From NCBI GenBank assembly GCA_004297765.1, contig SCTZ01000023.1:2130-66129 (forward strand): a stretch of 64,000 nucleotides of DNA, read 5' to 3'. This DNA comes from Chloroflexota bacterium. Its GTDB lineage: Bacteria > Chloroflexota > Dehalococcoidia > FW602-bin16. Positions 9,863 to 34,229 of this stretch are shown in pieces. Position 1 is the first letter of the stretch. Every line of letters starts with the position of its first letter. The translations under genes were made by a program, and so were the position numbers. The notes under the pieces are model-generated. The model searched no databases and was not told the origin of the DNA. It was given only the letters and a program-made list of their open reading frames with translations.

Positions 9863-9891
9863 TTGACTGCTTATGTACGACGTGGTATACT
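9863..9891 (+). promoter_or_regulatory. Sigma70 promoter of the TA operon
   Basis: TTGACT-N17-TATACT with an extended -10 TG. Confidence 0.7.
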
Positions 9892-9919
9892 TTCCTTGTC
9901 CCTGAAGGTGGTGAGAAAG

Positions 9920-10201
9920 ATGAAACGCGAGCTGAGGAAAATAAGAGTGGCTCCGGACAGCGAACTGGCAAGATTGCTGGAGGAGGCAAGAGAAGGTGAT
10001 CTGCTCTTGGAAAAGGATGGAGAGCTTTACCGTTTAAACCGCGGAGGGAAGGAAGATATCTGGGCGGGCTATGATCCGGAGAAGGTGCGGGAAGCTTTGG
10101 CCAAAGCAGCCGGGAGTTGGGCAGACATCGATACTGAGTCCTTGATCGCTGACATCCACCGTGCCCGCGAGGAAGGTTCGCGGCCGGCCGATAGACCATA
10201 G
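9920..10201 (+). CDS. Putative antitoxin for the VapC toxin
   Basis: A 93-aa charged protein whose stop overlaps the toxin start (TAGTG). The C-terminus AAGSWADID..SLIADIHRARE is typical of PIN-neutralising tails. Confidence 0.75.
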   Translation: MKRELRKIRVAPDSELARLLEEAREGDLLLEKDGELYRLNRGGKEDIWAGYDPEKVREALAKAAGSWADIDTESLIADIHRAREEGSRPADRP

Positions 10202-10596
10202 TGCCCTATATCCTCGACACCGATTGGATCATCAACGCCCTCGCGGGCAAGCATCACGCCACAGCGGTCATAGGTCGTTTGGCGCCGCAGGGGCTTGCGG
10301 TGAGTGTGATCACTCTGGGCGAGATCTACGAGGGGGCTTTCAAGTACGCCAATCCTCAGGCACACCTTACCGCATTCCGTCAGTTCCTCGCGCCTTTCCG
10401 CCTTCTCGGTCTTGACGACTCCATCATGGAGCGTTTTGCAGAGATCCGCGCAGATCTCCGCCGCCGGGGACAACTCCTCGCGGATTTTGACATTCTCCTC
10501 GGGGCTACGGCTCTCCAGCACAACCTTACACTCTTGACCCATAACGTCGAGCACTTCAAGCGAATCCCCAATCTTCAACTCTACCAAGCACACTAG
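10201..10596 (+). CDS. vapC: VapC PIN-domain toxin
   Basis: YILDTDWII, SVITLGEIYEG, DFDILLGATAL, LLTHNVEHF. Confidence 0.95.
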   Translation: MPYILDTDWIINALAGKHHATAVIGRLAPQGLAVSVITLGEIYEGAFKYANPQAHLTAFRQFLAPFRLLGLDDSIMERFAEIRADLRRRGQLLADFDILLGATALQHNLTLLTHNVEHFKRIPNLQLYQAH

Positions 10597-11941: not shown

Positions 11942-12649
11942 CTATTTCAATCTCTCAACGAAGGCGATGATCTGCTTCAGCTCGTCGTCGCTCAATCGAT
12001 CGGGCGGGAAGGATGGCATCTTATCCTTCGGAGTGCGGACCTGCTTAGTCACTTGCTGCCCCGTGTAGCCGGCTAGCTTGGGTCCCACGCCGCCCTCCGC
12101 ATTCGCGCCATGACAACTGGAACACCCCTTGGCGGCAAAGAGAGCCTTCCCGGCCTCCGGTCCCTCAGCCCCGGTTGCGGAGGCCGCGGGGGCAGGTGTG
12201 TTGGGAGCGTGCTCGATAGCCTCTTTCCAGTCCTCTGCCGTGCCGTGCACCAGAAAGGTCATCAACTCGTAGATCTGCTCCTGGTTAAGGGAGCCACCCT
12301 CCTCGTCGCTCCAGGCCGGCATGACCGTGTTCGACCGCCCGCGGGCTATGGTCTTGGTGATGAGAGTTTGGGCCTTCTTTAGATCGTCGGCGTCGCCCTC
12401 TTTGTACTCATGGCGCTTGAGGAGATCCGGCAAGAGGAGAGACGGTCCGACTTGCCCCTTGCCGTCCTTGCCATGGCAGGCGCTACATAGTGACCCGAAG
12501 AGGAGCGCCCCGCGATGCGCGGATTCGGACTCCTGCCTCAGCGCCGCCAGAGCTTGCCGCTCTGGCTCTTGAATGGCGTAGAGTGCCAGAATGTTGAAGG
12601 CGAGCAGCGTCAGTACCAGGGCTACGACGACGCGCTTGTCAATCTTCAT
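11942..12649 (-). CDS. Membrane-anchored diheme class-I cytochrome c (acceptor subunit of the Rieske/b complex)
   Basis: N-terminal TM helix, CSACH...MPAW and CSSCH...MPSF. GAGGAG RBS before ATG 12649. Confidence 0.9.
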   Translation of the reverse strand: MKIDKRVVVALVLTLLAFNILALYAIQEPERQALAALRQESESAHRGALLFGSLCSACHGKDGKGQVGPSLLLPDLLKRHEYKEGDADDLKKAQTLITKTIARGRSNTVMPAWSDEEGGSLNQEQIYELMTFLVHGTAEDWKEAIEHAPNTPAPAASATGAEGPEAGKALFAAKGCSSCHGANAEGGVGPKLAGYTGQQVTKQVRTPKDKMPSFPPDRLSDDELKQIIAFVERLK

Positions 12650-12665
12650 ACGGTCAACGCTCCTC

Positions 12666-13214
12666 TTATGCCTTGACGGCGTGTTTGGGATCCCACGCCG
12701 ACCGTTGAATAGCCTTGTTCGGATCTGTGTCCACCACAACTTTGCCGTCCACGATGCTGACCGGGAAGATGTCCAGGGGCCGCGGCGCAGGGCCGGCCTT
12801 GCGCACTCCATACCGATTGAAGATGGAGCCATGGCACGGACAGTTGAACCGACCCTTATTTGCTAGATCATCCTCGGAGGCATCCTCAGGCTTCCACGGC
12901 ACGGTGCAGCCCAGGTGAGTGCACTTCTGATAGAGAGCGACAAAGCCATCGGGCGTATGTGAGAGGTAGAAGCGTCCTTCCTGGAAGCGGGTCACCGATC
13001 CCACGGGGAAGTCCTCTACGCGCCCAGCCACGATCTTGCCGCCAAACGCGCCCACCTTCTTCGCCTTGAAGAAGAGCAGGAATGCCGCCCCGCCCTCGGT
13101 CGCGACGGCCCCAACCGCGGCCAGAAGTGCGAAGCGCAGGAAGTGTTTCCGCGTGACTCGAATGCTCGAAAGATCGCCAGACGGCGATGTGTGATGGTTG
13201 TTCCGATTCGCCAA
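12666..13214 (-). CDS. qcrA: Rieske [2Fe-2S] subunit (QcrA/PetC-like)
   Basis: CTHLGC and CPCHGS boxes, Tat-like TRKHFL followed by a TM helix, and GPAPRPL. Confidence 0.95.
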   Translation of the reverse strand: MANRNNHHTSPSGDLSSIRVTRKHFLRFALLAAVGAVATEGGAAFLLFFKAKKVGAFGGKIVAGRVEDFPVGSVTRFQEGRFYLSHTPDGFVALYQKCTHLGCTVPWKPEDASEDDLANKGRFNCPCHGSIFNRYGVRKAGPAPRPLDIFPVSIVDGKVVVDTDPNKAIQRSAWDPKHAVKA

Positions 13215-13289
13215 GGCTTACCTCCAGGATCATCGTGACGCGCATGTCCCCAAGACAGCTCAGCGGGCATGCGCGCTACGCAGCATGAT

Positions 13290-14054
13290 TTACTCCGCCG
13301 CGTGTAACTGCCAGGGCCACACGAGGTGCATGCCGGGTCCGCGGAAGGCGGTCCCGATGATGGTCAGTGTCAGAAACGTGGAAACGAAGGCGAAGAACAG
13401 CGCGATCAGGATGTCGCGCGTGTTAGCGCCCTTCCAGATCTTGCGCACAAGCGCCACCTGGATGGCCGGTAGCCCGACCATGAGCCCCATCGGGATGACG
13501 TATTCAATGATGAACGTCGGAACCCCCAGGGGGTCAAGCATACGTCGGACGCCGACGAACTCGTTGAAGAGAACCATCACGACATTCAGCGCCGCGGCGT
13601 ATATCCCAGAGAACAATGCGATCTGCACGCCCCGGGACGAGTCGAAATAGCGCCCCACACCCTGAGGGCTCGTGTCCACGAAAGGGATGGCCATCAGCAA
13701 AAGGACCGCGGCGCCCGGGACGACCACGCCAGCCAGCGTCGGGTGCATGTGCACCAGGAGCTCCTGAAGGTTGAGGAAGTACCAGGGCGCCTTGGCCGGG
13801 TTCGGCGTGAGGCTGGGGTTGGCGTGGTCCACCAGTGGAGCGTTCACCAGCCACGAGACCGCCAGAAGCACGACCAGGAAGACAGCCGCCGCGATGAACT
13901 CCCAGATCACCAGGTGCGGCCACGTCATCTCGGTGTCGTCGACATCCTTCGCCAGCTGAGGGACAACTCCCTCCACCTCCACCAGGGCCAGTAGACGAAG
14001 GCGTTCCTCGTCGCCGTTGAGCGGTGGTCGATCGAGCCGAGTTGATGTTGTCAC
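13290..14054 (-). CDS. Cytochrome b6 subunit IV-like (PetD/QcrC-like)
   Basis: TWPHLV..E, APL..HANP..TPNPAKAPWYF (the PEWY-equivalent), LMAIPFVD, and several TM helices. Confidence 0.9.
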   Translation of the reverse strand: MTTSTRLDRPPLNGDEERLRLLALVEVEGVVPQLAKDVDDTEMTWPHLVIWEFIAAAVFLVVLLAVSWLVNAPLVDHANPSLTPNPAKAPWYFLNLQELLVHMHPTLAGVVVPGAAVLLLMAIPFVDTSPQGVGRYFDSSRGVQIALFSGIYAAALNVVMVLFNEFVGVRRMLDPLGVPTFIIEYVIPMGLMVGLPAIQVALVRKIWKGANTRDILIALFFAFVSTFLTLTIIGTAFRGPGMHLVWPWQLHAAE

Positions 14055-14133
14055 GATACTTTACCCCTAATGTCTGCATTACGAACAAGGCGCATGATCG
14101 CGGGACACCCCGGACCCCACCCCGGTTGATAGG

Positions 14134-14182
14134 GACATCTTGGTTTTGCGGTCGCCTCAGGCGACCGCAAAACCAAGATGTC
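14134..14182. repeat. Perfect 49-bp palindrome inside the b6 operon
   Basis: GACATCTTGGTTTTGCGGTCGCCT-C-AGGCGACCGCAAAACCAAGATGTC. Confidence 0.85.
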
Positions 14183-14240
14183 TTCGGCCTTCAGGGCGGG
14201 GGCTAGCGAGAGTGTCTGAGTCTAACTTCTGGCATCAATA

Positions 14241-14975
14241 TTAGAGCGGTCCGGAGATGCCACCGTCCTTCCGAATGCGCCAGAAATGGATGGCCATGAA
14301 GATCGCGGCCAGTATCGGGAACCCGATTACGTGCAGAGTATAGAAGCGAATCAGCGCATTCGGTCCGACCTCGTAGGCGCCCAACAGCATTAGCTTCACC
14401 TCACTGCCGACGACCGGCACGTAGCTGGCCATATTTGTTCCCACTGTGATCGCCCAGAACGACAGTTGATCCCAGGGAAGCAGATATCCGGTGAAGCTGA
14501 GCAGAAAGGTGAGCGTTAGCAATATCACGCCCACCACCCAGTTGAACTCCCGCGGCGGCTTGTACGAGCCGGTGGCGAAGACCCGAACCATGTGCACAAA
14601 CACCGCCAGCACCATCCCATGGGCGGACCAGCGATGCATGTTGCGCAGCAACATGCCGAAGTTCACAGTCGTCTCCAGGTCCTTCATGTCCGTATAGGCA
14701 AGCTGCACAGCCGGACGGTAATAGAACATGAGGAGAACGCCTGTTATGGACAGAACCAGGAAGAGCAGGAAGGACAACCCTCCCATGCAGAAGGTGTAGC
14801 TGGCCCGCAGCCCATGGCGGCGCACCCGCACAGGATGCAGATGCAGAAACACGTTGCTGGTAACAGCCATGGACTGCGTCCGCAGGTCCTCCGGCCAACC
14901 GTGGCGGAAGATCGATCGCCACGGTCGACTGCGACGTAGCTGTCGACCTAACTGGTTTGCTGCGTTGTATAACAC
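14241..14975 (-). CDS. qcrB: Cytochrome b6-type N-terminal subunit (PetB/QcrB-like) with heme ci cysteine
   Basis: YTFCMGG (ci Cys), [57 protein letters not shown]. Confidence 0.95.
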
Positions 14976-15018
14976 GCCTTCCTCCCCGAAGTACGTCGTT
15001 CCTCAACTGAATGCTCTT

Positions 15019-15120
15019 TTACAGAATACCGATCCAACGCTGGAGCACTAGGATCGTGGCGATAACCACGGTCATCGCCGCGAACACGATAGCCAGCTCG
15101 AGCGCCTCTCCAACTACCAA
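15019..15120 (-). CDS. 33-aa single-TM peptide (not in the ORF track)
   Basis: AAGGAGG, 6 nt, then TTG. It reads MVVGEALELAIVFAAMTVVIATILVLQRWIGIL* and fills the gap between the flavoprotein and cytochrome b6. Confidence 0.7.
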   Translation of the reverse strand: MVVGEALELAIVFAAMTVVIATILVLQRWIGIL

Positions 15121-15163
15121 AGCATGCCTCCTTTACTGGGTCCTTGCGTCCGGATGGTTGACG

Positions 15164-16972
15164 TTATCTCTTTTGCCTTGCCGGCTGTATGGAACCGCGT
15201 GACGCCGCCTGGGATATCATCTGCGGCGCGCTCTCGACCGGCTCTGCCGGCGGGGGCGCCTCCCACTCGAACTGAACCATGCTGATCGCCTTGGTGGGAC
15301 AGCGATTCTCGCAGAGTCCACAGCGAATGCAGAGCTTCTCGTCGATCACCATAGCCGCCCCAGACGTGGGCAGATGTCCTCCTAAGGAGACTGCTGTTTG
15401 GTCATCGGTCGAAAGGGCTTCGATCGCCACCATGCGCAGCACACCCTGAGGGCAGGCGTCGATGCAGAGACCGCATAGGACGCAGCGGGTGGAGTCGATC
15501 ATCACGTTGATCTGGCACTGGAGGCAGCGGGTTGCCTCGGTCCGGGCCGCCGCAAGTGCCAAACCAAGCTCGACCTCTTCCTGCAGACTGGCACGCTCCG
15601 CTGTAGGCAGCGTGGGCATGGGCGCTCTTTGTGTGGTCAGATAATCCCCATCCCGTTGATAGCGCTGCAGCACCGTGAACTTCGCCCTTCGCTGCAGTCG
15701 CTGTCCTCCGTTGAGATAGGCGTCAATAGACGCCGAAACGGCGTGCGCATCGGCGATAACCCCGATAACGTCGCGTGGCCCGGTTATGAAGTCGCCGGCC
15801 GCGAAGACACCCGGCTTGTTGGTCATGAACGTGCGCTTGTCCACCTCCAAGCGATCCCAGCGCGACATCTCCAGCCCGATTTCCGGAGGCAGGAACGTGA
15901 TATCGGGTGACTGGCTCACCGCCGGGATGACCGTATCCACGGGGAGGATGAACTCGGACCCCGGAACAGGAACGGGGCGCCTGCGTCCGCTGGCATCAGG
16001 CTCCCCAAGTGCGTTGCGTACGCAGGCCAGGCCGACGATGCGGCTCTGATCGTCGGAATTGATGGCGGTGGGCGAGACCAAATAGTGGAAAGTGACCCCT
16101 TCCTCTTCGGCCTCCTCGATCTCCTCGGCTCCCACGGCCGCCTCGGCCGCCGTGCGCCGGTAGATAACGTGGACGGACTTGGCACCAAGGCGCACGGCGG
16201 AGCGTGCGCAGTCGATGGCGGTGTGCCCCAGACCAATCACGGCCACTCTCTCGCCCAGTCCCGTCGGCTCCCCCAGGTTCGCCCGGCGCATGAAAGTCAC
16301 CCCATGCAGTACACCGTCAAGGTGCTCGCCAGGAATCCCGAGCTTCTCCGGCTTGTGCGCTCCAGCCGCGATGAGCACAGCATCGAATATGCGGATCAGG
16401 TGATCCAACCCGATATCTTTGCCCACCGGCCTGTTCAAATGGATGTCTACACCCAGAGACTCCAGGTCCTGGATGATGGTATTCTGAATCACGTCGCGCG
16501 GGAGCCGGTAGGGTGGTATGCCGACACGCAACATGCCGCCAACGACCGGCAAGGCCTCGAAGATGGCTACTCGATAGCCCAACTGGGCCAGATCGCTTGC
16601 GGCGGTTAGCCCGGTGGGGCCGGCACCGACGATGCCAACCCGCTGACGCTTGCGTTCGATCGGAGTCCCGGGTCGCGTGCCCAAGCGGCCGAAATCGGCC
16701 GCGGAGCGCTTCAAGTGGCAGATCGAGACCGTCTCATCCAGATCGCGGCGCCGGCAAGCACCCTCACAGAGGCGCACGCACACGCGGCCAAGGATGGCGG
16801 GAATCACGTTGGCCGTGCGGTTCACTTCGTAAGCGTCGGCGAAGCGCCCCTGGGCGATCAGCGAGACGTACCGGGGAACGTCCGTGTGGGCCGGACAGCG
16901 ATCCTGGCACTTGATGTTCTTTGCGAACCATTCGGCGCCGGTCCGCACCAGCCGAAACCTGCCCTTGCTCAT
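15164..16972 (-). CDS. GltD/NfnB(SudA)-like FAD/NAD(P)H oxidoreductase with N-terminal Fe-S domain and C-terminal 2x[4Fe-4S] ferredoxin
   Basis: CQDRCPAH...GRVCVRLCEGAC, GAGPTG, GIPPYRLP, IGLGHTAIDCAR, YRRT, FAAGD, RCLQC, CVLCGLCIDACP, CIRCGLCENRCP. Confidence 0.95.
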   Translation of the reverse strand: MSKGRFRLVRTGAEWFAKNIKCQDRCPAHTDVPRYVSLIAQGRFADAYEVNRTANVIPAILGRVCVRLCEGACRRRDLDETVSICHLKRSAADFGRLGTRPGTPIERKRQRVGIVGAGPTGLTAASDLAQLGYRVAIFEALPVVGGMLRVGIPPYRLPRDVIQNTIIQDLESLGVDIHLNRPVGKDIGLDHLIRIFDAVLIAAGAHKPEKLGIPGEHLDGVLHGVTFMRRANLGEPTGLGERVAVIGLGHTAIDCARSAVRLGAKSVHVIYRRTAAEAAVGAEEIEEAEEEGVTFHYLVSPTAINSDDQSRIVGLACVRNALGEPDASGRRRPVPVPGSEFILPVDTVIPAVSQSPDITFLPPEIGLEMSRWDRLEVDKRTFMTNKPGVFAAGDFITGPRDVIGVIADAHAVSASIDAYLNGGQRLQRRAKFTVLQRYQRDGDYLTTQRAPMPTLPTAERASLQEEVELGLALAAARTEATRCLQCQINVMIDSTRCVLCGLCIDACPQGVLRMVAIEALSTDDQTAVSLGGHLPTSGAAMVIDEKLCIRCGLCENRCPTKAISMVQFEWEAPPPAEPVESAPQMISQAASRGSIQPARQKR

Positions 16973-17000
16973 CTATGCACCTCACCGCATCGTCCTGGCT

Positions 17001-17063
17001 ATGTTACCTGTACAAGGTTACTGCGAAGTAACGGGGTGCCACGAAAAGTAACGACAAGGTTAC
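17001..17063 (-). promoter_or_regulatory. Promoter of the flavoprotein-b6-Rieske operon with tandem OmpR-type boxes
   Basis: On the minus strand: GTAACCTTGTCGTTACTT, then 31 bp further GTTACTTCGCAGTAACCTT, 7 bp, TAACAT. The geometry matches 20095-20157. Confidence 0.7.
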
Positions 17064-17112
17064 AACCATGGCAACTGCACCTAATGAGGATCACTTGACC
17101 GGGTGGAATGTG

Positions 17113-17141
17113 TTGTAAAGGAAGTTAACCGCATTTACAAT
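17113..17141 (+). promoter_or_regulatory. Putative promoter of the two-component operon
   Basis: TTGTAA-N17-TACAAT, 21 bp before ATG 17163. Confidence 0.45.
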
Positions 17142-17162
17142 GGTGGAGAGGCACACTATAAG

Positions 17163-19397
17163 ATGACACGGCTGCTGTCCTGGCTCGACAATCTACCACT
17201 CCAGTCTCGCATCAGCCTACTGGTTTCGCTCGGGCTGATCAGCGTGCTGGCTCTGCTTACCGTTGTCGCTCTGCGAGTCGTGCAGGATACCACCGATCGC
17301 ATCGTGCACGAGCGACTGGTTATCACACAGATGACGGCCACGTATGTCGAAACCCTATTGCAAGAGGCCGTCAACGATCTCTCCAAAGCCACGACCTTCG
17401 CCTCCTTCAACCCGGAGCGAGGCAATCTATCCGAAGAAGAACACCTGATGGCCCATACTTACGGCCAGCTCGGCAACTTCACGCAGGGGTTGATCCTCGT
17501 GGACCGCCATGGCATCGTGGCGCTGGCCCATCCGCGCGAGCTCGCACCGATAGGTCACGACCTCTCCGGCGAGCCCTATATTCGGGATACGCTGGGGAAG
17601 GAGGGTCCCAATGTCTCCAACGCCTTCCGCAACCCCCTGACGGACAGGCCTACCGTGGCCGTGACCATCCCGGTACACAACAGTGACGGAGAGATCGTCT
17701 CCTACCTGACCGGGTTGATCGACCTGACCAGCCCCGCCTTCGCCGGATCGCTTACCTACGCCCAGAATCTCGGGCGAACCGGCCACGCGGACCTCCTCGA
17801 TGCCCGCGGCATCGTTGTGGCCTCCTCAGGGCCAGAGCACGTGCTGCACCCCGGCGAGCACCCTGAGTTCTACCAGCGCATGCTGCGGGAGCAGCGAGAG
17901 AATGTCGAGGCAACACCCTATGTCGAGGACGGACAGGTGGAAGGCGTGCATGTGATGGCCTTCGTACCGCTCAAGCTGGCTCCCTGGGGTATTGGACTGG
18001 GCGGCACAGAAGAAGAGACGTACGCACCGGTGCGCCGCGTGCAGACCGAGGCTAGCGTGGTCGCCGTACTATCCTTGTTGCTGGCACTTGTCTTCGTCTG
18101 GTTCACCACGCGCCGGGTCGTTCGTCCTGTTGAAGCGTTGATAACTGCTTCCGAGCAAATGGCCTCGGGCGATCTCTCCCGCCCGATCTCGATTTCGGGC
18201 GGTGGAGAGATAGGCCGTCTTGCCGGCACTTTTGACACGATGCGACTCAAATTGCAGAGCGCCTACCACGCCCTGAGAATGGAGAAGAGCCAGTATCAGG
18301 GCATCTTCCGCTCGATAGCAGATGCGGTGTTCACCGTCGATACCAAGCTATACATCACGTCGTTCAATCCTGCCGCCGCCCATATGCTAGGCTGGACTGA
18401 GAACGAAGTGCTCGGACGGACCTGCGAGGAGGCCCTAGGCTGTCAGGGCGCGAGCGGCGTCTTCTTATGTAAAACGGACTGGTCATCCACGTCCCACCTG
18501 GAGTCGTTGGAATTTCCAGCCAGCACGCGGCTAGTAGTGCACACGCGCTGTGGGGATCCAGTCACTGTAGGAGCGACCCAGGCGCCCATCTTCGACGACG
18601 ACGGGCACCTGGTCGGTCTGGTGCACGTGTTGCGCGATATCTCCGCCCAGGAGCAACTGGATCGCATGAAGGAGCAGTTCATCTCCAACGTGTCTCACGA
18701 GTTGCGCTCGCCCCTCGGCCACATCAAGGGCTACGCCACGACGCTGCTGCGCCGGGATGCTTCCTGGGACGAAAAGACGCAGCGGCGTTTCATCGGCGAG
18801 ATCGTGCAAGGCAGCGAGCGAATGCAGAAACTGGTGAACGAGCTCCTCGACATGTCACGACTTGAAGCCGGCCGCTTTGCCATCGAGAAACAGCCAATCC
18901 AGGTAGGGCACGTTGCCAGAGCAGCCGTAAAGACAGTGCGGTCGCTGTCCAAGAAGCACAAGTTCGTCGTCAGCATGCCGCAGAGTCTGCCGCGGGCGCA
19001 GGCGGACCCCCATCACATCGAGCAGGTGCTGGTCAATCTGCTGGAGAACGCGGTTAAGTACTCGCCTGAAGGCGGCTGCATCAGCGTCTTAGGCAGCACG
19101 GAGGACGGCACGGTGGTCGTCTCCGTCGCAGACGAGGGCATCGGCATCGCCGAGGATCAGTGGGAGCGCGTCTTCGAGCGATTCCAACGCGTGGACAGCA
19201 GCCTGACTCGTCAAGTGGGCGGCGTGGGACTCGGACTTTCCATCTGTCGTAAGATTATCCAAGCCCATGGCGGACGAATCTGGGTCGAAAGCAAGATAGG
19301 TCAGGGCAGCACGTTCTATTTCAGCCTGCCCATTTTCAGACAAGTAGCTCAGCGCGATCAGGAGTCGCTCGCACACAAGGGAGGTGTTCTGCCATGA
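17163..19397 (+). CDS. Sensor histidine kinase (TM-dCache-TM-HAMP-PAS-HisKA-HATPase)
   Basis: Two TM helices, HAMP EIGRLAGTFDTM, PAS FNPAAAHMLGW, SHELRSPL, NLLENAVKYS, DEGIGI, GVGLGL. Confidence 0.95.
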   Translation: MTRLLSWLDNLPLQSRISLLVSLGLISVLALLTVVALRVVQDTTDRIVHERLVITQMTATYVETLLQEAVNDLSKATTFASFNPERGNLSEEEHLMAHTYGQLGNFTQGLILVDRHGIVALAHPRELAPIGHDLSGEPYIRDTLGKEGPNVSNAFRNPLTDRPTVAVTIPVHNSDGEIVSYLTGLIDLTSPAFAGSLTYAQNLGRTGHADLLDARGIVVASSGPEHVLHPGEHPEFYQRMLREQRENVEATPYVEDGQVEGVHVMAFVPLKLAPWGIGLGGTEEETYAPVRRVQTEASVVAVLSLLLALVFVWFTTRRVVRPVEALITASEQMASGDLSRPISISGGGEIGRLAGTFDTMRLKLQSAYHALRMEKSQYQGIFRSIADAVFTVDTKLYITSFNPAAAHMLGWTENEVLGRTCEEALGCQGASGVFLCKTDWSSTSHLESLEFPASTRLVVHTRCGDPVTVGATQAPIFDDDGHLVGLVHVLRDISAQEQLDRMKEQFISNVSHELRSPLGHIKGYATTLLRRDASWDEKTQRRFIGEIVQGSERMQKLVNELLDMSRLEAGRFAIEKQPIQVGHVARAAVKTVRSLSKKHKFVVSMPQSLPRAQADPHHIEQVLVNLLENAVKYSPEGGCISVLGSTEDGTVVVSVADEGIGIAEDQWERVFERFQRVDSSLTRQVGGVGLGLSICRKIIQAHGGRIWVESKIGQGSTFYFSLPIFRQVAQRDQESLAHKGGVLP

Positions 19398-20098
19398 GGA
19401 AAGCTACGATCCTCGTCGTCGACGATGATCCGCACTACGTTCAGCTCGTACGCGTCAACATGCAGGCAAGTGGCTATCGGGTCTTGACGGCCTCCGACGG
19501 TTTGGGCGGACTCAAGATCCTGGAGACCGAACAGCCCGATCTGGTCATCCTGGACATCATGATGCCGTTTCTCGACGGCTATGAGACCTGCCGCCGGATC
19601 CGCGAGTTCTCACTCGTGCCAATCATCATGCTGACGGCACGCGGCGAGCAGGAACACAAAGTACGAGGACTGCGCGCGGGAGCCGACGACTACGTGACCA
19701 AGCCTTTCGGTGCCGATGAGCTCCTGGCCAGGGTGGAGGCCGTGCTGCGGCGCTCCATGGACTCAAGGAAGCCGCAACGGAAAGGCGACTTCACCTGCGG
19801 TGAGCTGACCATCGACTTCGCCCATCATCGCGCGCTGGTAGCCGGCGCCGACGTCGGCCTCTCCGCAACGGAATTCAAGCTGCTGAGTCAGTTGGTTGCT
19901 AACGCGGGATTCGTTGTCTCGCAAGAGGACCTCCTCAGAAAAGTATGGGGGCAAGAATACAGCGACGACCGCGAGATCCTCAAAGTCTGCATCAGTCGCC
20001 TTCGCCAGAAGATCGAGCAGGACCCGCACCATCCACAGTACATCCGCACCCGACGAGGCATTGGCTACAGCTTCGTCGCTTCTCCCCCACACCCGTAA
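19394..20098 (+). CDS. OmpR/PhoB-family response regulator
   Basis: VVDDD, LDIMMP, GADDYVTKPF, winged helix ISRLRQKIE...IRTRRGIGY. ATGA overlap with the kinase. Confidence 0.95.
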   Translation: MRKATILVVDDDPHYVQLVRVNMQASGYRVLTASDGLGGLKILETEQPDLVILDIMMPFLDGYETCRRIREFSLVPIIMLTARGEQEHKVRGLRAGADDYVTKPFGADELLARVEAVLRRSMDSRKPQRKGDFTCGELTIDFAHHRALVAGADVGLSATEFKLLSQLVANAGFVVSQEDLLRKVWGQEYSDDREILKVCISRLRQKIEQDPHHPQYIRTRRGIGYSFVASPPHP

Positions 20099-20157
20099 CC
20101 TTCCTGCAACCTTGGCGCCCACATCGTTACCTCGCAGTAACCTTGGGCCGCTACCAT
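20095..20157 (+). promoter_or_regulatory. Second promoter with tandem OmpR-type boxes
   Basis: GTAACCTTCCTGCAACCTT (20095), GTTACCTCGCAGTAACCTT (20126), 7 bp, TACCAT (20152). Confidence 0.7.
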
Positions 20158-20194
20158 GACTACCAACGAACTCTGCAAGCAAGGATGGCGCTGC

Positions 20195-20602
20195 GTGCGT
20201 GTTGCAGACAGGTCCAAGGTCCTGGTCGCCGACAGCGACAGCAAGATCCGAGAGCTCATCCGGACCAACCTGACAACTGATGAGTTCGAGGTCTCTGAGG
20301 CTGGCACCGCATGGGACTGCGTTAAGCTGGTCTGGAAAGAGAACCCCGACCTGATCATCCTGGATCTCGGACTGCCGGATCACGACGGATGGGAAGTCCT
20401 GAACCTGATGAGATTGTCCGGGATCCTGAGCGATGCCGGGGTGATCATTACCAGTGAGGACTTCCTAAGCCGCTCCGCGCTCCGCAGATCCCAGGCGACC
20501 GGATTTATCCGTAAGCCGTTCGATGTCCGTCTCCTGGTTCGCAACGTTCAGAGGGCGCTCGCCGAGCGCCAAGGCAAGGCCGCCTACGCACGCCAACATT
20601 AA
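20195..20602 (+). CDS. Stand-alone receiver-domain protein
   Basis: KVLVADSD, PDLIILDLGLP, IITS, FIRKPF. The start is placed at GTG 20195 because ATG 20156 overlaps the predicted -10. Confidence 0.85.
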   Translation: MRVADRSKVLVADSDSKIRELIRTNLTTDEFEVSEAGTAWDCVKLVWKENPDLIILDLGLPDHDGWEVLNLMRLSGILSDAGVIITSEDFLSRSALRRSQATGFIRKPFDVRLLVRNVQRALAERQGKAAYARQH

Positions 20603-20773: not shown

Positions 20774-20812
20774 TTGACGTGTGTCAGTACACCGGTAACA
20801 CCGCAGTAGTCC
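20774..20812 (+). promoter_or_regulatory. Possible FNR/CRP-family site plus a degenerate OmpR box upstream of the cytochrome operon
   Basis: TTGAC-GTGT-GTCAG (20774-20787) and GTAACACCGCAGTAGT (20795). Confidence 0.3.
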
Positions 20813-20847
20813 ACCACAGCTCGCAATTCGTTTCGTGGAGGAGAAGT

Positions 20848-23445
20848 ATGGATAACGGGCAACAATTTGGCTCGGGGCAAGGCGCCGTCGGACCACGTCC
20901 GAGGTGTTGGTGGAAAGCACAGCGTTTTCTCCGCCTGGGCGTGATCGTCGTTGCCGGCGTTCTGATCGCGATGGCTATGGCCTGCGGATCGAACTCGGCT
21001 TTGACCAAAGAGACGGGAGCAGGCTCTAACACCAAGCCCGCCTCCTTGTTGCCGACGGTTTCCGCGGGCAAGCAACTTTACCAGCAGCATTGCAGCACCT
21101 GCCACGGGGCAGAGGGCATTCGCATGCCCATAGCTCCTCTACAGTCCAAGGAGTTTCTGGAATCACGCGGGGATGCTACTCTCATTTTGGTTATCAGCGA
21201 GGGCAAAGGCGCTATGCCGGCCTGGGGCAAGCCGAGAGGAGGACCTCTAACCGACGCCCAGGTCCAGAATGTAGTAGCCTACCTCAACTATGCGGCGAGC
21301 CGCGAGAGCTCCAGCGTCAAGGCCGGGGCTGGCCAGCAACTCTACACGGAGTCATGCGCGCGCTGCCACGGAGACAAGGGCGACCGCATCCCCGTCGCCC
21401 CACTCAATGTGAAAGGCTTCCTTGATAGCCGCTCTAACGATAGTCTGGCCACAACTATTGCCGACGGACGGGGACAAATGCCGGGCAATAGCAAGACCAA
21501 GGGCGGTCGATTGACCGATAGTCAGATCCAGGACACGATCTCCTACCTGCGCAACGTGGTCGAGACTAATGTCGCCGCGGCCGCGGGCCGCGGTCGCGAG
21601 ACATATGTTGCCAGTTGTCTGGGCTGTCACGGCGAGAAAGGTGATCGTGTCTCGGGAGTGGCTCTGGCTTCCCTCGAGTTCCTAACATCGCGAGGCGACG
21701 GCAAGCTCATCGCCTCGATCGGCGAAGGCGCCTCAACCATGCCTGGATTCGGCCGTGCCAAGGGTGGATCCCTTGATCCCAGCGACATCGGAGCCATCCT
21801 TGCCTACCTGAAAGCCTGGTCAGGCACCCGGGCCTCCAGCGCACTACCTCTGGCCGGACCGGCCGGCGAGGCGAAGGAGCTCTACTCCAGAAACTGCGCC
21901 CCGTGCCACGGCGAGACGGGGGACAAAGTCTCAGGTATCCAGCTCCGCTCCAAGGGATTCCTCCAGCAGAAGGGCGACACCCTGCTGAAGCAGACTATTG
22001 CCCGTGGCAACGCAAAGGGCATGCCCGCCTGGGGTAAGGAAAGCGGTGGACCCTTCAGCGATGACCAGATCAACGGACTGGTCGCCTATCTAAGCGCCGC
22101 GGCTGCCGACACCGGATCGTCCCCCAGCGCAGGTGCATCTGCCAGTCCCTCGCCTTCTGCGTCTGGTTCTGCTGGCAGCAACGCAAGCGGCACGTCTGGG
22201 CCCTCCTCTTCCGCGGCCCCGGCCGGTGGCGGAGCGATCAGTGCTGATTTGATAGCCAAGGGCAAGGAAGTCTTCACCAAGAACTGTACGGCTTGCCACG
22301 GTGAGACACGGGACCGCATCCCGACCTGCAAGCTTACGGATAAGAGCTGGGTGGAGGAGAAGGGCGACGCTGGTCTCACCAACAGCGTCACCAACGGCAA
22401 GGGCGGCATGCCCGCCTGGGCCGGAAAGCTCTCCACTGACGAAATCAAGGCTGTGGTCGCCTTCCTGAAAGACGCCGTCGGGATCAAGGGGGGCAGCGGC
22501 AGCACTTCAAGCAGCAGCGCCCCAGCCGGCGCCAGCGTCCTCAGTCCCGAGGCGGTGGCCAAGGGCAAAGAGGTCTTCGCCAAGAACTGCACGGCTTGCC
22601 ACGGCGAGACGCGGGATCGCATCCCGACTTGCAAGCTGGCGGATAAGGACTGGGTGACCCAGAAGGGAGAAGCCGGTCTCACCAATAGCGTCACCAACGG
22701 CAAGGGCGGCATGCCCGCCTGGGCCGGCAAGCTCTCTAACGACGAGATCAAATCTGTCGTCAGCTTCCTCCTCGACGCCGTCGGGGCGGGTGGCGGCAGT
22801 GCGTCCGGAGCCTCGTTTTCCGCGGCCCCGGCCAGCGGCGGAGCGATCAGCGCTGACCTGGTGACCAAGGGCAAGGAGGTCTTCACCAAGAACTGCACCG
22901 CTTGCCACGGCGACACGCGGGACCGCATCCCAACTTGCAAGCTGACGGATAAGAGCTGGGTGGAGGAGAAGGGCGACGCCGGACTCACCAACAGCGTCAC
23001 CAACGGCAAAGGCGGCATGCCCGCCTGGGCCGGAAAGCTCTCCACTGACGAAATCAAGGCTGTGGTCGCCTTCCTGAAAGACGCCGTCGGGGCGGGCGGT
23101 GGTGGAGGTGGTGCAGGCACGGCGGCCGGTGCCGCCTCCGCGAGCCCGGTGGCTGCGACCAGCGCGATCGTGGAGCCCACCAAGATAGACACGGCGACGG
23201 GCAAAGCGCTCTTTACGAAGAACTGTCAGATGTGCCACGGGGCCGACGGCCTGCAGCAGAAGGCCTGCCCGCTCGGCTCGAAGGAATGGGTTCAGAACAC
23301 CAGCGCGGAGGGCCTGCGGGCCCGCATCACCAACGGCAAGCCTGCCGCCGGCATGCCAACATGGGGCAAGTCGAAAGGCGGCTCGCTCAGCGACGACGAC
23401 ATCAGCGCGATCATGTTGTACATCGGGACCGAACTGGCCCGGTAA
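20848..23445 (+). CDS. Lipoprotein of eight concatenated class-I (His/Met) cytochrome c domains
   Basis: GGAGGAG RBS, h-region ending AMAC. Heme motifs CSTCH, CARCH, CLGCH, CAPCH, CTACH x3 and CQMCH, each followed by an MP(A/G/T) axial-Met motif and separated by Ser/Gly/Ala linkers. Confidence 0.95.
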   Translation: MDNGQQFGSGQGAVGPRPRCWWKAQRFLRLGVIVVAGVLIAMAMACGSNSALTKETGAGSNTKPASLLPTVSAGKQLYQQHCSTCHGAEGIRMPIAPLQSKEFLESRGDATLILVISEGKGAMPAWGKPRGGPLTDAQVQNVVAYLNYAASRESSSVKAGAGQQLYTESCARCHGDKGDRIPVAPLNVKGFLDSRSNDSLATTIADGRGQMPGNSKTKGGRLTDSQIQDTISYLRNVVETNVAAAAGRGRETYVASCLGCHGEKGDRVSGVALASLEFLTSRGDGKLIASIGEGASTMPGFGRAKGGSLDPSDIGAILAYLKAWSGTRASSALPLAGPAGEAKELYSRNCAPCHGETGDKVSGIQLRSKGFLQQKGDTLLKQTIARGNAKGMPAWGKESGGPFSDDQINGLVAYLSAAAADTGSSPSAGASASPSPSASGSAGSNASGTSGPSSSAAPAGGGAISADLIAKGKEVFTKNCTACHGETRDRIPTCKLTDKSWVEEKGDAGLTNSVTNGKGGMPAWAGKLSTDEIKAVVAFLKDAVGIKGGSGSTSSSSAPAGASVLSPEAVAKGKEVFAKNCTACHGETRDRIPTCKLADKDWVTQKGEAGLTNSVTNGKGGMPAWAGKLSNDEIKSVVSFLLDAVGAGGGSASGASFSAAPASGGAISADLVTKGKEVFTKNCTACHGDTRDRIPTCKLTDKSWVEEKGDAGLTNSVTNGKGGMPAWAGKLSTDEIKAVVAFLKDAVGAGGGGGGAGTAAGAASASPVAATSAIVEPTKIDTATGKALFTKNCQMCHGADGLQQKACPLGSKEWVQNTSAEGLRARITNGKPAAGMPTWGKSKGGSLSDDDISAIMLYIGTELAR
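22230..23095 (+). repeat. Intragenic triplication of a cytochrome c domain (~300-bp period)
   Basis: Three near-identical KGKEVF.KNCTACHG.TRDRIPTCKL...MPAWAGKLS units, differing mostly at synonymous positions. Confidence 0.9.
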
Positions 23446-23503
23446 GCCGTCGCATGAAATGTCGCGATGGGCCGATGACTGTGCGTGGAGGGACACGGGT
23501 TAC

Positions 23504-24265
23504 ATGATGGAGAGCTTACCCCTGGGTGTTTTTGCCGCATTGGAGAGATCGACGCTCTCCTGGGCCATAGCGGCTACCTTTCTGGTGCTGTTGCCTATCT
23601 GGCTGGTATTGTTTATCCGATCACGCGGAGACAGTAGTCTTCAGCCAGGGCGACTTGTCGTCATGATTGCCGGATTAGGCGCTTTGCTGACCATCCCTCT
23701 CTTGGGGGTCGGGGTCTCTCTGCTCCTGCCCGCGAACCCCACCGCGGGATCCAGCGGTCCGGCCGCCGTGAAGGCCGCGGCTTTGCCGGAGGTCACGACG
23801 GCCTCCGCTCAGGGCGAGCAGGAGAAGCCCGCGGCCACGAAGGTCCCCGCTCAGGGCGAACAGGAGAAGCCCGCGGCCACTGCTACCCGAGCGGCCGCGA
23901 CGCCGACGCTGCCGGCTCCATCGCCGACGCGAGTGCCTCCCACGCCGACACAGACGCCATCCCCCAAGCCGGCTATCTCGGCCAGCACCGAGCCAGCCCC
24001 GGACAAATCGAGGGAGCTAGCCGCGAAGGGTCGAACTGTCTTCGAGCGCGAGAGATGTGTGACCTGCCACAGCATCAACGGCAAGGGTGGCGTGATCGCA
24101 CCCGACCTGGCCGGCGTCGGAGAGCGACACTCCGCGCAGTGGATTCTCGATCACTTCAAGGACCCACAGTCTATCAGCCCGGGGACGCTCATGCCGAGGT
24201 TCAACGTGCCCGATGAGGATTTCGAGGCATTGACAGAGTATCTTCTAACACTCAGGCGTCAATAG
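23504..24265 (+). CDS. Membrane-anchored monoheme cytochrome c on a Pro/Ala/Thr linker
   Basis: Two N-terminal TM helices, a 42-bp-period duplication at 23805-23880 (AQGEQEKPAAT), and CVTCH...APDL...PGTLMP. Confidence 0.9.
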   Translation: MMESLPLGVFAALERSTLSWAIAATFLVLLPIWLVLFIRSRGDSSLQPGRLVVMIAGLGALLTIPLLGVGVSLLLPANPTAGSSGPAAVKAAALPEVTTASAQGEQEKPAATKVPAQGEQEKPAATATRAAATPTLPAPSPTRVPPTPTQTPSPKPAISASTEPAPDKSRELAAKGRTVFERERCVTCHSINGKGGVIAPDLAGVGERHSAQWILDHFKDPQSISPGTLMPRFNVPDEDFEALTEYLLTLRRQ

Positions 24266-24356
24266 CGCGGGGTTCCTGAATCCGGAGTTGCCAGCACAGG
24301 GAAAGAGTGATCGGTGGAAAGAAGGTGAAGGTTCCGTGGAAGCAAAAGGAAAGACG

Positions 24357-25316
24357 ATGAACATTGGTGCGCCACAAGCCCGAACAGCTACAGACGTGAT
24401 TTTGACCTTGGGAATTCGTTTCCTGGCGTCTATCCTGTTTATCGTCCTGGTTGGCTTCAGTCTCTACTACGTCGTCGACCGTGCCAGTCTGGTTGGGCCT
24501 TCTCCAGTCGACAATACCATGCGCGAGCTGGAGGAACTAGTCAAGCAAGAGCCGGACAACGCGAATCTGCGGGTGCAGGTGGCCCAGGCCTATACCGAGC
24601 GAGATATCTACGAGGCGGCCCTGGCCCAGTACAAGAGCGCCCTGGAGATCGAGCCAGACCATCAGGCGGCGCTAATTGGCATGGGCAATATCTACCTGGC
24701 TCAGAACAATGACAAAGAAGCTCTGGCCGCATTTCAGAAAGTGGCGGATCTGAACAAGGATAACCCCTACAAGAAGACCTTGCGCCAACTGGAAGCCGTG
24801 TACTACCGATTGGCTCTCATTCAAGAGCGTATTGGCAACCTCGAGGTCGCCCGGTCAAACCTGTTGCAGGCCCTGGACATCGAACGGACGGACTCCGACG
24901 CCTGGTATCTGCTTGGCGAGGTGCAGCGCAAGCAAAACCGTGGACAGGAGGCCGTCGAATCGTACCGAAAGGCTGTTAGTCTGGACCCGCGCTTTACCGA
25001 TGCCTATCGAGCCATGTCGGCCGTCTACACGCAAATGGGTGACCCGGCCATGGCTGAGTACGCGGACGGCATGGTGGCGGTTGCCAACCGCGACTATCAG
25101 CGCGGCTTGACTCTGCTCCAGCGATCCACATCCGCCGCTCCCGACAACGCCGATGCCCTGTGGGGACTGGGGATGTGCTATGAGAACGAAGGCCGCTACC
25201 AGGAGGCCCTGGATGCATACCTGAGCGCGGTCAATTTGGGACAGAACCACATCCTGGCCGAGATGTCCCTCAAGCGGGTGTACGAAAAAATACCAGCAGG
25301 TGAGGTGCAGAAATGA
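24357..25316 (+). CDS. Membrane-anchored TPR protein
   Basis: N-terminal TM helix followed by multiple TPR motifs (ALEIEPDH, AVSLDPRF, AAPDNADALWGLG). Confidence 0.9.
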   Translation: MNIGAPQARTATDVILTLGIRFLASILFIVLVGFSLYYVVDRASLVGPSPVDNTMRELEELVKQEPDNANLRVQVAQAYTERDIYEAALAQYKSALEIEPDHQAALIGMGNIYLAQNNDKEALAAFQKVADLNKDNPYKKTLRQLEAVYYRLALIQERIGNLEVARSNLLQALDIERTDSDAWYLLGEVQRKQNRGQEAVESYRKAVSLDPRFTDAYRAMSAVYTQMGDPAMAEYADGMVAVANRDYQRGLTLLQRSTSAAPDNADALWGLGMCYENEGRYQEALDAYLSAVNLGQNHILAEMSLKRVYEKIPAGEVQK

Positions 25317-26341
25317 CGGTCGAGCAGAGCACAAAGATCGCCCCTCCCCTGCCGCGCCACAGCAGAAGAACTATTGCCATCGGTACATTCCTATTGCTCC
25401 TAGTCGCAACGGGGCTGATCACCTACATCGCGTTCGGCTACATGCTAACACGCAAGCCAATTGCGGCCCTACTTCCGCTGCCGCGTATCTCAGCACTACA
25501 ACAAACGACCCCTCCAATTTATGCGGGAGTGATCAGCAAGCTGGCCGGACCGATGTCCATTGCCGTCAGCCCGGATGGGGAGCGAGTCTACGTCGCCGAG
25601 AGCGATGGAGAGCGGGTTGTGAAAGTCTTCAACCCGTCCGGCAATCTCCTGCAGACCCTGTCCCCACCCAACACCAGCGCGGGACAGCGCAAGCCCATGT
25701 ACATTGCCGTTGACAAGAATGGACGGGTCTTCGTCAGTGACCGCCAACGCCCGGCGGTACATATGTACGATGACAAAGGGGCCTGGATCGGCGTGTACCA
25801 ACCGGAGGAGGCGGAGAAAGACTGGTCTCCGTTGGGTCTCAACGTGCAATCGGATGGCAGCTTGATAGTGACCAACGTCGAGGGCAATGCCCACAGCGTT
25901 CTCGTGTTCGCCAGGAACGAGCGATTGATCCGGCGGATTACCCACCCATTGACGGGAGACAAGCTGTCCTTCCCCAACGGTGCCGTGCAGGATAGCCTCG
26001 GACGAACCTACGTTAGCGACAGTAACAATGGCCGCCTCCTGACCTTTGACTCCACCGGCGCAGTTGTCGGGCAGATCGAATCCACCGATGCTAAGGCCGG
26101 TCTGGCTATGCCTCGCGGAGTGGCTCTGGATGACGACGGCCGGCTCTATGTGGCCGACGCATCAAGCGACCTCGTCAGAGTTTTCCAGACTGGCGAGAAG
26201 TTAGAGTACCTGTACTCTTTTGGCAGCACGGGTGTCGATAGCGGACAGTTCCGGTTCCCGAATGGGGTAACCGTAGACAGCAAGGGGCGGATCTGGGTAG
26301 CGGACTGGGGCAACAACCGAGTCCAGATGTGGCGGTATTAG
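25313..26341 (+). CDS. Membrane-anchored NHL-repeat beta-propeller protein 1
   Basis: TM helix, then repeats P.GVA.D..GR.YV.D..N.R, and FGSTG...GQFRFPNGV. Confidence 0.9.
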   Translation: MTVEQSTKIAPPLPRHSRRTIAIGTFLLLLVATGLITYIAFGYMLTRKPIAALLPLPRISALQQTTPPIYAGVISKLAGPMSIAVSPDGERVYVAESDGERVVKVFNPSGNLLQTLSPPNTSAGQRKPMYIAVDKNGRVFVSDRQRPAVHMYDDKGAWIGVYQPEEAEKDWSPLGLNVQSDGSLIVTNVEGNAHSVLVFARNERLIRRITHPLTGDKLSFPNGAVQDSLGRTYVSDSNNGRLLTFDSTGAVVGQIESTDAKAGLAMPRGVALDDDGRLYVADASSDLVRVFQTGEKLEYLYSFGSTGVDSGQFRFPNGVTVDSKGRIWVADWGNNRVQMWRY

Positions 26342-26487
26342 GTTCCCCCAGCGCGGCGTAGGCCGTTGGGCAGGCGGGACTGAACCGAATGAGAGGGGGT
26401 GAGGCCTCAACAAATAATAGACAGACCGAAGCAGCTATATTCGGAGATGGAAACATTGGACTACACTAGGAAGGAGGGCTGATCAGT

Positions 26488-28095: not shown

Positions 28096-28117
28096 ATCGA
28101 GGAGCGATCTAGACCGC

Positions 28118-28147
28118 GGGAGGGAGAAGTAAATTCTTCTCCCTCCC
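28118..28147 (+). terminator. Stem-loop after the hexaheme gene (partial terminator or mRNA stabiliser)
   Basis: GGGAGGGAGAAG-TAAATT-CTTCTCCCTCCC, with no U-tract. Confidence 0.55.
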
Positions 28148-28356
28148 CACCCGGCTTCCTGTGCGTGGACTTTCCACCGAAGCACGGTGCAAAGCCCGCT
28201 CACGGAGCGGCAAAGAGGGAAGGACAGCCGCATCTTTGCTGCTTTCAGGCGGAAGCCAAACACTATTCTATCACGTAGAGGCGCCTCCTGGCATTGGAGA
28301 CCCGCCGGAGGCGCTATCCGGTTCTACCCAAGACAGAAGGGGGAAACGTCGTTCCA

Positions 28357-29538: not shown

Positions 29539-29542
29539 TTCG

Positions 29543-32395: not shown

Positions 32396-32450
32396 GTAAT
32401 ACCGATTGTGTTTGTCTTTGTCCTGATTTGCTGATGCAACGCCGAAGAAC

Positions 32451-32571
32451 GCCCAGGGCTGAAGCCACTGGGCTGAGTCAACGAAGCCCGCCGAGGCGGG
32501 CTGACTACCGCGCCCAGCCCCTCGGAAGGGGCTTCGTTGTCTCAGCCCGCTCGCTTTAGCGGCGGACGGGC
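32451..32571. repeat. Composite hairpin element (GGGCTGAAGCC-type REP-like)
   Basis: GGGCTGAGTCAACGAAGCCC...GGGCTTCGTTGTCTCAGCCC inverted arms with nested hairpins. Confidence 0.7.
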
Positions 32572-32584
32572 GGTGGACAACAGG

Positions 32585-34162: not shown

Positions 34163-34179
34163 GGCGACCGACTCGGTCT
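34143..34179. repeat. Perfect palindrome centred on the resB stop codon
   Basis: AGACCGAGTCGGTCGCC-TGA-GGCGACCGACTCGGTCT. Confidence 0.85.
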
Positions 34180-34229
34180 CGTGGTCGCGATCACGAGCTC
34201 CCTGATAGGAAAGAGCATGAGAGGAGATC

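Follow-up and report, generated by a model that had tools for sequence, protein, structure and literature searches.

This study focused on a six-gene operon at positions 11942-16972 of a 64,000-nucleotide (nt) stretch of DNA, hereafter the window, from contig SCTZ01000023.1 of an uncultured Chloroflexota bacterium of the class Dehalococcoidia. The operon encodes a Rieske/cytochrome b6 complex headed by a flavoprotein, and by sequence this complex is orthologous to the Kustd1480-1485 type of anammox bacteria. The best explanation overall is that quinol bifurcation, working close to equilibrium, would reduce NADP+; of the mechanisms considered it is the most likely, although our confidence in it stays a little below even. 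Docking of the ferredoxin domain of the flavoprotein on the complex, taken as a separate point, is judged probable. The design is already in print for anammox bacteria, as is a named APWY clade that includes Chloroflexi; a literature search returned no description of the design in Chloroflexota, though earlier work and the neighbourhood drawings of PMC5600118 may cover part of it.

All six open reading frames lie one behind another on the minus strand and follow the order given by the initial annotation of this DNA: the flavoprotein (16972-15164; 602 amino acids (aa); Fer4_20, Pyr_redox_2 and 2x[4Fe-4S] in Pfam), a 33-aa peptide (15120-15019), a four-helix cytochrome b6 (14975-14241; 244 aa; PF00033), subunit IV (14054-13290; 254 aa; PF00032; five helices predicted from hydropathy), a Rieske [2Fe-2S] protein with an RK-type twin-arginine-like anchor (13214-12666; 182 aa; PF00355), and a diheme class I cytochrome c with one N-terminal helix (12649-11942; 235 aa; PF13442/PF00034), the ATG of which, at 12649, is preceded by a ribosome-binding site. 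The intergenic gaps, from flavoprotein to diheme c, are 43, 43, 186, 75 and 16 nt, and a scan for promoters and terminators inside the operon gave nothing above shuffle level. The motifs listed by the same annotation are also present, namely the haem ci cysteine (F-C63-M-G-G), the Qo motif K-A-P-W-Y-F and Rieske box II, CPCHG-S-I-F. Its description of the gene order as non-canonical stands against bc1 and b6f complexes only; among relatives, the order b6-IV-Rieske was found in 71 of the 80 best b6-matching loci, the set from which operon order and linkage were counted and most of which are labelled Chloroflexota. One of the nine exceptions was Rieske-first, and eight lacked a downstream match, five of these on short or ending contigs. 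A protein homologue search gave 17 matches.

Kinship with the flavoprotein-bearing complexes of anammox bacteria, which had been put forward for comparison, was borne out by identities, trees and shared residues. The C-terminal module of the flavoprotein was detected in 38 of 301 Planctomycetota genomes searched, and among 20 Planctomycetota places inspected were four genomes with hydrazine-synthase-sized matches, each carrying two copies in Rieske/b operons. The Rieske proteins of two anammox loci (L158 and L159) match, by eye, the structures 9rk3 and 9rk4, and the residue numbers in the accessible part of PMC12954380 fit; these two Kuenenia proteins (9rk4 and 9rk3) were also the best PDB matches of the window Rieske protein. 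Identity to L158 and L159 is 61% and 56% for b6, and 46% and 41% for the flavoprotein, which shares 42% with a flavoprotein from Limnocylindria. In a b6 tree of 67 rows, the window fell within a 47-row clade together with anammox, Acidimicrobiia, other Chloroflexota and Ilumatobacter-type sequences, apart from the PEWY paralogues (support 97 in the Shimodaira-Hasegawa-like approximate likelihood ratio test, SH-aLRT), while in the flavoprotein trees it was placed in the Kustd1483-type clade (98, 97), with a weaker sister placement (94, 88). These were quick trees, with SH-aLRT support and no bootstrap, and they are not read as showing which way any transfer went.

The likeness to Kustd1480-1485 and Kuste4569-4574, as these are described in the accessible part of PMC12954380, extends to the split b6 with a five-helix subunit IV, CMGG, APWY and a Ser-type Rieske protein, to a flavoprotein orthologue that bears four Fe-S sites and a buried lysine, and to the His and Arg/Lys residues of the b6 interface. 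The Kustd type likewise has a small one-helix open reading frame between b6 and flavoprotein, but the profile of the window peptide did not match it. The two also differ in gene order, which is Rieske-first in anammox bacteria, and in the exit cytochrome, a diheme c in the window compared with the hexa- or octaheme c of Kuenenia; there is no HAO-like octaheme protein, and the host, unlike anammox bacteria, encodes oxygen and nitric oxide (NO) reductase-like genes.

The APWY clade was named by Kao and Hunte (2014) and corresponds to subfamily G of Dibrova et al. In the accessible part of PMC4122944 it includes Chloroflexi and is marked by CxGG on split cytochromes b and by S-F or S-Y Rieske proteins, and the Ktedonobacter b6, IV and Rieske proteins have consecutive accessions in its table, in the same order as in the window; the accessible part of PMC5600118 mentions NAD(P) oxidoreductase genes near cytochrome b 'in many other cases'. 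The window shares the APWY motif, the split four-helix b with CxGG, the S-F Rieske signature (CPCHGSIF) and the tree position, and its APWY motif, S-F Rieske protein and b6-IV-Rieske order are known family traits. The peptide, an unlinked flavoprotein and a Dehalococcoidia member are not reported in those parts of the two papers, which mention no biochemical characterisation of any member; the accessible part of PMC6037941 contains nothing on complexes of this kind. The literature search found no description of the peptide, of an unlinked flavoprotein or of the receiver-flavoprotein fusion considered below, though earlier work may cover part of this. Against the NCBIfam models for Geobacter ExtP and ExtQ (NF040969/NF040970), b6 scored 294.4 with a cut-off of 290 for ExtP, but subunit IV scored 50.9, far under the ExtQ cut-off of 150; the ExtP label on b6 denotes clade kinship, not selenite reduction.

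The flavoprotein comprises an N-terminal Fe-S domain, FAD and NADP(H) Rossmann folds, a linker, and a C-terminal 2x[4Fe-4S] ferredoxin domain. It had been called NfnB/GltD-like, but it is not NfnB proper: in both sequence and fold (predicted local distance difference test score of the model, 83.6) its best PDB matches were Nfn-Bfu NfnA (9n5u/9bov) and Sporomusa StnC (8oh5), and the R-C-L-x-C cluster motif, which stands at the start of NfnB, lies after the Rossmann domains in the window protein (482-486), as it does in NfnA (9n5u, 9bov/9bp5) and StnC. The YRR motif is shared with these proteins too; unlike them, the window flavoprotein is a stand-alone protein of 602 aa with a 2x[4Fe-4S] end, and the operon specifies no NuoE/NuoF-like partners. 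Membership of NfnAB (NfnSL) was rejected on the lack of an NfnA/NfnS partner in the operon, the presence of Lys88 at the Glu position and the shift of CxxC to 483-486. With no bifurcating partner encoded, any bifurcation would therefore be that of the quinone. GltD was rejected as well (TIGR01318, 298.7 against a cut-off of 482.95; TIGR01317, 185.1 against 447.7), there being no gltB among the neighbours scanned. DsrL is similar in having an N-terminal Fe-S domain, FAD/NAD(P) folds, a linker and a C-terminal ferredoxin domain, with YRR as in the NADP(H)-specific DsrL-2 (PMC7596348, accessible part), but the window operon is without dsr genes and the neighbour of its flavoprotein is a membrane cytochrome b6. 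No dsr gene was found among the neighbour genes scanned, and a search of the whole genome for dsrAB was not made.

In 36-38 of 38 flavoprotein sequences, eight ferredoxin-domain cysteines are conserved, as are seven in the N-terminal domain and the linker (22, 26, 65, 69, 73, 483 and 486); the exceptions are frameshifted or cut sequences. Lys88 takes the place of a Glu cluster ligand, and one of the two clusters of the N-terminal domain is probably [3Fe-4S], with Lys88 substituting for the fourth ligand; it matches a buried lysine modelled at the [3Fe-4S] site of the anammox flavoprotein (PMC12954380). YRR, at 271-273, was present in 38/38 sequences, and since in DsrL-2 and NfnB this motif marks the use of NADP(H) (PMC7596348), the cofactor is probably NADP(H) rather than NAD(H). 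CLE or SLE replaces YRR in a second group (56 of 110 scored), which consists of many metagenome contigs and the non-anammox Planctomycetota. Many metagenome contigs (L198-L253) have the order flavoprotein-Rieske-b6-IV-cytochrome c, no ci cysteine, and CLE for YRR, which suggests that theirs may be an NAD(H) version of the complex.

In close relatives of the window operon, an N-terminal response-regulator receiver domain is fused in frame to the flavoprotein (L175:620-2878, L176:6536-8749, P0005 and P0006). The window protein lacks this domain, and the fusions suggest two-component control of the NADP(H) port in those relatives. A separate paralogue group of the same architecture was also seen (L118, L119, L122, L127, L128 and L172), one copy of which, in L128, stands beside 2-oxoacid:ferredoxin oxidoreductase genes.

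Linkage of flavoprotein and b6 was conserved, but only in part. The flavoprotein lay directly upstream of b6 in 42 of the 80 best loci, within 30 nt of the b6 match in 37 of these; 33 of the 80 had neither flavoprotein nor ferredoxin domain there, and in five Actinomycetota loci the ferredoxin domain stood upstream alone, so that this domain is indicated as the contact. Linkage recurred in anammox bacteria, other Planctomycetota and further metagenome contigs, in four different gene orders. A survey of 251 Chloroflexota genomes (completeness at least 85%; b6 threshold, E 1e-60), in which the profile search scored up to 16 candidates per genome and misses are possible, detected this short b6 in 82, of which 69 had a flavoprotein match: linked in 22, elsewhere in 47 (divergent in 13 of these), with the remaining 13 giving no match. 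The flavoprotein is thus not an obligate member of the operon. Among the 18 families represented, four were linked, seven unlinked and five without the flavoprotein, while two (13 genomes) carried a divergent, long-branch protein of uncertain orthology. Nine unlinked flavoproteins from the seven unlinked families branched inside the b6-linked clade. One apparent separation, that of G153, is probably due to a contig break. In a 41-genome sample of the window's class, this b6 occurred in 18, seven of them with a linked flavoprotein.

The flavoprotein was matched in 11 of the 169 Chloroflexota genomes that are without this b6. Four of the 11 belong to family f57, of which the two checked were linked to a divergent b6, one had its b6 in two pieces, and six belong to families f51 and f61; two of the latter were placed in a separate clade, one adjoined 2-oxoacid:ferredoxin oxidoreductase genes and three were unchecked. 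Nine genomes with a fused, long cytochrome b gave no flavoprotein match. A complex prediction with two copies each of b6 and subunit IV and one ferredoxin domain scored 0.07 against a mark of 0.32, and is not counted for or against binding.

In the membrane core, the haem b ligands of b6 (H114, H128, H215 and H230) and C63-M-G-G were invariant in 35 sequences, as were E52, A89, W91 and Y92 of subunit IV, with its Qo motif APWY, in 27. Glu52 aligns with the KEF glutamate of the anammox protein and is a candidate ligand of haem ci; His47 of subunit IV is retained in the window, together with Cys63 and Glu52. The diheme c (CSACH and CSSCH) is membrane-anchored and presumed to be the high-potential electron exit, the type of which differs across the clade.

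The initial annotation held that the ferredoxin domain would dock near haem ci. This route was weakened by the comparison of 180 loci that remained after removal of 7 duplicates and 12 PEWY-type or distant paralogues: the ci cysteine is missing in 61 of the 115 flavoprotein-linked loci, in at least four lineages (about 46 of the loci coming from one clade of metagenome contigs), and haem ci therefore cannot be the general dock. His45 of b6, in contrast, was kept in 113 of these 115 loci and in 178 of all 180. It corresponds to one of the residues that, in the AlphaFold3 models of the anammox complexes, surround an extra b haem held between two b6 histidines, with arginines of b6 and of the ferredoxin domain at its propionates (PMC12954380, accessible part). 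The anammox residues His62/His43 correspond to His45 of the window, Arg266/Lys267/Arg247 to Arg235/Lys236, and Arg550 of Kustd1483 to Arg557 of the window flavoprotein, which also has R550; R557 was found in 109 of 115 flavoprotein loci. Arg511 of Kuste4570 has no counterpart in the window.

Several variants of the core were observed among the loci. A sister group that includes members of the window's class (L147-L150, L095, L097 and L098) has GLG for CxGG, and so has lost the ci cysteine, while mostly keeping the linked flavoprotein. A big Dehalococcoidia-like clade (L005, L013, L067, L083-L091 and similar) keeps the peptide, is without the flavoprotein and has Asp in place of His47 of subunit IV. 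The very divergent flavoprotein-b6-IV-Rieske-monoheme c operons of family f57 (L116 and L117) have VPWF or VPWL at Qo, and no YRR or Lys88. Finally, at three loci (L053, L062 and L069) that hold a b6 gene of the clade, neither subunit IV nor a Rieske protein was matched in the 7 kb to each side.

The 33-aa peptide, which begins with a TTG start codon preceded by AAAGGAGG and has one predicted transmembrane segment, is encoded by a conserved gene: an eight-seed profile recovered it at 35 loci, with 29.5-55.7 bits, among 56,668 segments (best score of the reversed control, 9.2), in every case on the b6 strand and adjoining genes of the complex; it was not detected by this profile in 166 other b6 loci, some of them too short to show it. 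Glu8 is invariant. Four positions were seen: in the gap that separates the flavoprotein and b6 genes, ahead of the flavoprotein gene, ahead of b6 where the operon has no flavoprotein, and after the cytochrome c gene. The peptide tracks the membrane core, not the flavoprotein, and is likely to be a small structural subunit of that core. It has no Pfam family (best E-value among 19 members 0.041, none near the cut-off) and no PDB match. It resembles PetG/L/M/N in size and charge pattern only, and homology to these was rejected, there being no corresponding Pfam or PDB match.

In the mechanism that we favour, which takes up one of the two directions offered by the initial annotation, the complex would work as a complex III with an NADP(H) port. 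Of the electrons that menaquinol gives up at Qo, one would leave through the Rieske protein and diheme c, and the other would pass by way of haems bL and bH to the additional haem predicted where the two b6 subunits of the dimer meet, then through the four Fe-S clusters to FAD, to reduce NADP+. Because haem ci and the Qi site are retained, the port is probably a branch beside the normal Q-cycle rather than a replacement for it. The host genome (99.9% complete) encodes complex I with NuoE/F/G-type genes, two canonical-order PEWY complexes with Gly-type Rieske proteins (a low-potential signature), the futalosine pathway to menaquinone, an A-type-looking oxidase and an NO-reductase-like gene; the names of genes outside the operon come partly from reading of their sequences, and the 9% contamination of this genome calls for caution in statements about its other contigs. 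Given complex I and the PEWY complexes, ordinary oxidation of NADH and menaquinol is already covered. The Ser-type Rieske protein is confined, among the host's Rieske/b complexes, to the one in the window, and an anammox homologue of S-F type has been measured at +335 mV (PMC12954380). NrfA was considered as terminal acceptor and dropped, as it was not found in the host genome (PF02335).

A number of observations weigh against this mechanism. His45 was kept in 59/59 loci without an adjacent flavoprotein, the Rieske serine in 47 of 48 such loci scored, and both persisted where the genome has no flavoprotein match at all (13/82; for example G286 and G287). The two residues are thus equally common without the flavoprotein, so neither proves coupling, and the argument for direction that is based on the Rieske potential is limited; as markers of flavoprotein dependence they were discarded, since they do not discriminate linked from unlinked loci. 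The converse case is provided by L116 and L117, which are flavoprotein-linked yet lack both His45 and the ci cysteine. The interface haem is itself a model prediction for the anammox complexes, carried over to the window by residue correspondence, and the separation of flavoprotein from b6 in 47 of 82 genomes is real in G141, G167 and G190, which are single contigs. The loci and genomes counted are kin and not independent of one another, coming as they do from 18 families and a handful of large clades. As haem ci and its putative Glu ligand are kept, reduction of quinone at Qi would compete, a problem raised in PMC12954380, and the literature search gave no direct measurement of NAD(P)+ being reduced by quinol at a complex of the Rieske/cytochrome b type. 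A rough energy sum for transfer from quinol to Rieske and NADP+ (menaquinone -70 mV; NADP -320 or -370 mV; Rieske +260 or +335 mV; membrane potential 0-150 mV) ranged from +155 to -120 mV, and was negative in six of eight cases with a membrane potential. The reaction would therefore lie near equilibrium, and would go forward with a reduced quinone pool and an oxidised cytochrome c side.

Electrons might instead flow through the docked complex in the opposite direction, the first option of the initial annotation and an alternative that we regard as rather unlikely. The flavoprotein would then oxidise NADPH, and its electrons, entering on the cytoplasmic side through the interface haem, bH or haem ci, would be passed to menaquinone at Qi, so that surplus NADPH is respired; Mitchell's original Q-cycle and the cyclic flow at b6f linked to ferredoxin-NADP+ reductase are the models for such a route. 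NADPH is not normally accepted by complex I, its oxidation by menaquinone is downhill by about 250 mV, and the window retains Cys63 as well as Glu52 and His47 of subunit IV, all of which would suit such a flow; ferredoxin-NADP+ reductase also co-purifies with b6f (cited in PMC5600118). The same 250 mV would, however, be dissipated with no extra proton pumping (PMC12954380) in a genome with a complete-looking complex I, and entry through haem ci is not a general route, given the loss of its cysteine from so many linked loci.

A shade less probable again is the view that the flavoprotein is a soluble enzyme resembling ferredoxin:NADP+ reductase, co-regulated with an ordinary Q-cycling complex and not one of its fixed subunits. 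Its frequent separation from b6 or absence across the 82 genomes, with a b6 core unchanged where it is missing, would be expected on this view, and the paralogue in L128 shows that the fold serves other partners. Yet the two genes nearly abut in 37 of 42 linked loci, linkage recurs across groups and gene orders, no flavoprotein of the clade was seen without this b6 among those checked, and co-migration of subunits has been reported for the anammox complex (cited in PMC12954380). Decidedly improbable, and the least likely of the alternatives, is a reverse Q-cycle (confurcation), in which an electron from periplasmic cytochrome c and one from NADPH would reduce menaquinone at Qo at the expense of the proton-motive force. 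Reverse operation was proposed for the APWY clade by Kao and Hunte (PMC4122944), the energy sum is about zero or favourable to the reverse under a membrane potential, and multiheme cytochrome genes (8, 1, 6 and 7 CxxCH) lie across the divergent region from the operon; but NADPH and proton-motive force would be spent on a carrier of lower value, the operon encodes no periplasmic donor enzyme, and in the close relatives examined (L146, L175 and L176) no such multiheme island was found next to the operon.

Upstream of the flavoprotein gene, the divergent intergenic region (16973-17102) carries five GTAAC/GTTAC boxes and a 10-bp direct repeat, and is a candidate regulator site. None of 5000 shuffles reached five boxes, a motif chosen after it had been seen, and 24 of 5000 had such a repeat; neither the boxes nor this arrangement of genes was found in the close relatives L146, L175 and L176. 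Facing them, and divergent from the operon, are genes for a dCache-HAMP-PAS kinase, an OmpR-type regulator and a stand-alone receiver (17103-20602), followed by a cytochrome c island (20779-35072) that specifies 8-haem and 1-haem class I cytochromes, TPR and NHL proteins, 6- and 7-haem proteins with paired CXXCH, ResB and CcsA, and possibly serves extracellular electron transfer. The two-component system and the island were rejected as conserved parts of the locus, L176 being only generically similar (29% for the kinase) and differently arranged. Between b6 and subunit IV lies a perfect 23-bp hairpin (14134-14182; arms 14136-14156 and 14160-14180), the core of which has 14 copies in the host genome at up to two mismatches; a second copy in the window (about 35155-35176) likewise stands just behind a stop codon. 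A role as dedicated terminator or processing site was rejected, the hairpin being one of the 14 copies of a dispersed repeat.

Elsewhere in the window are two very large minus-strand open reading frames (40145-63848), one of 2142 aa with CARDB/Ig-like domains and the other of at least 5719 aa, and a small open reading frame followed by one of 131 aa (9863-10596), by eye a PIN-domain (VapC-type) toxin-antitoxin-like pair. On other contigs of the host genome, one of the two PEWY complexes (G000:C253:4648-9395 and C252:630-8763) is divergent from the NO-reductase-like gene and the other follows cytochrome c maturation genes, while a NuoE/NuoF-type cluster with a 1010-aa NuoF-GltD-like fusion (G000:C209:46676-55528) resembles a bifurcating enzyme of the Bfu family.

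So far, the idea that a Rieske/cytochrome b complex uses quinol to reduce NAD(P)+ has been put forward on the strength of anammox genomes. Chloroflexota commonly have this complex too, with the modelled residues in place, and the window adds a further member from an uncultured organism, with a probable small subunit and a genome that pairs this complex with two ordinary ones. If the reading given here is true, many Chloroflexota, including oxygen-respiring ones, would have a complex III whose NADP(H) port is reversible, a quinone-based bifurcation that yields NADPH by way of the interface haem and not haem ci, with a flavoprotein often supplied in trans and switched by a receiver domain in the closest relatives, and with an undescribed 33-aa subunit; this extended picture we hold only tentatively. 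The anammox case would then be one instance of a widespread design. Since the complex occurs naturally in linked, unlinked, ferredoxin-only and flavoprotein-less forms, and in one without haem ci, the proposal can be examined in more tractable hosts and the haem ci route told apart from that through the interface haem.

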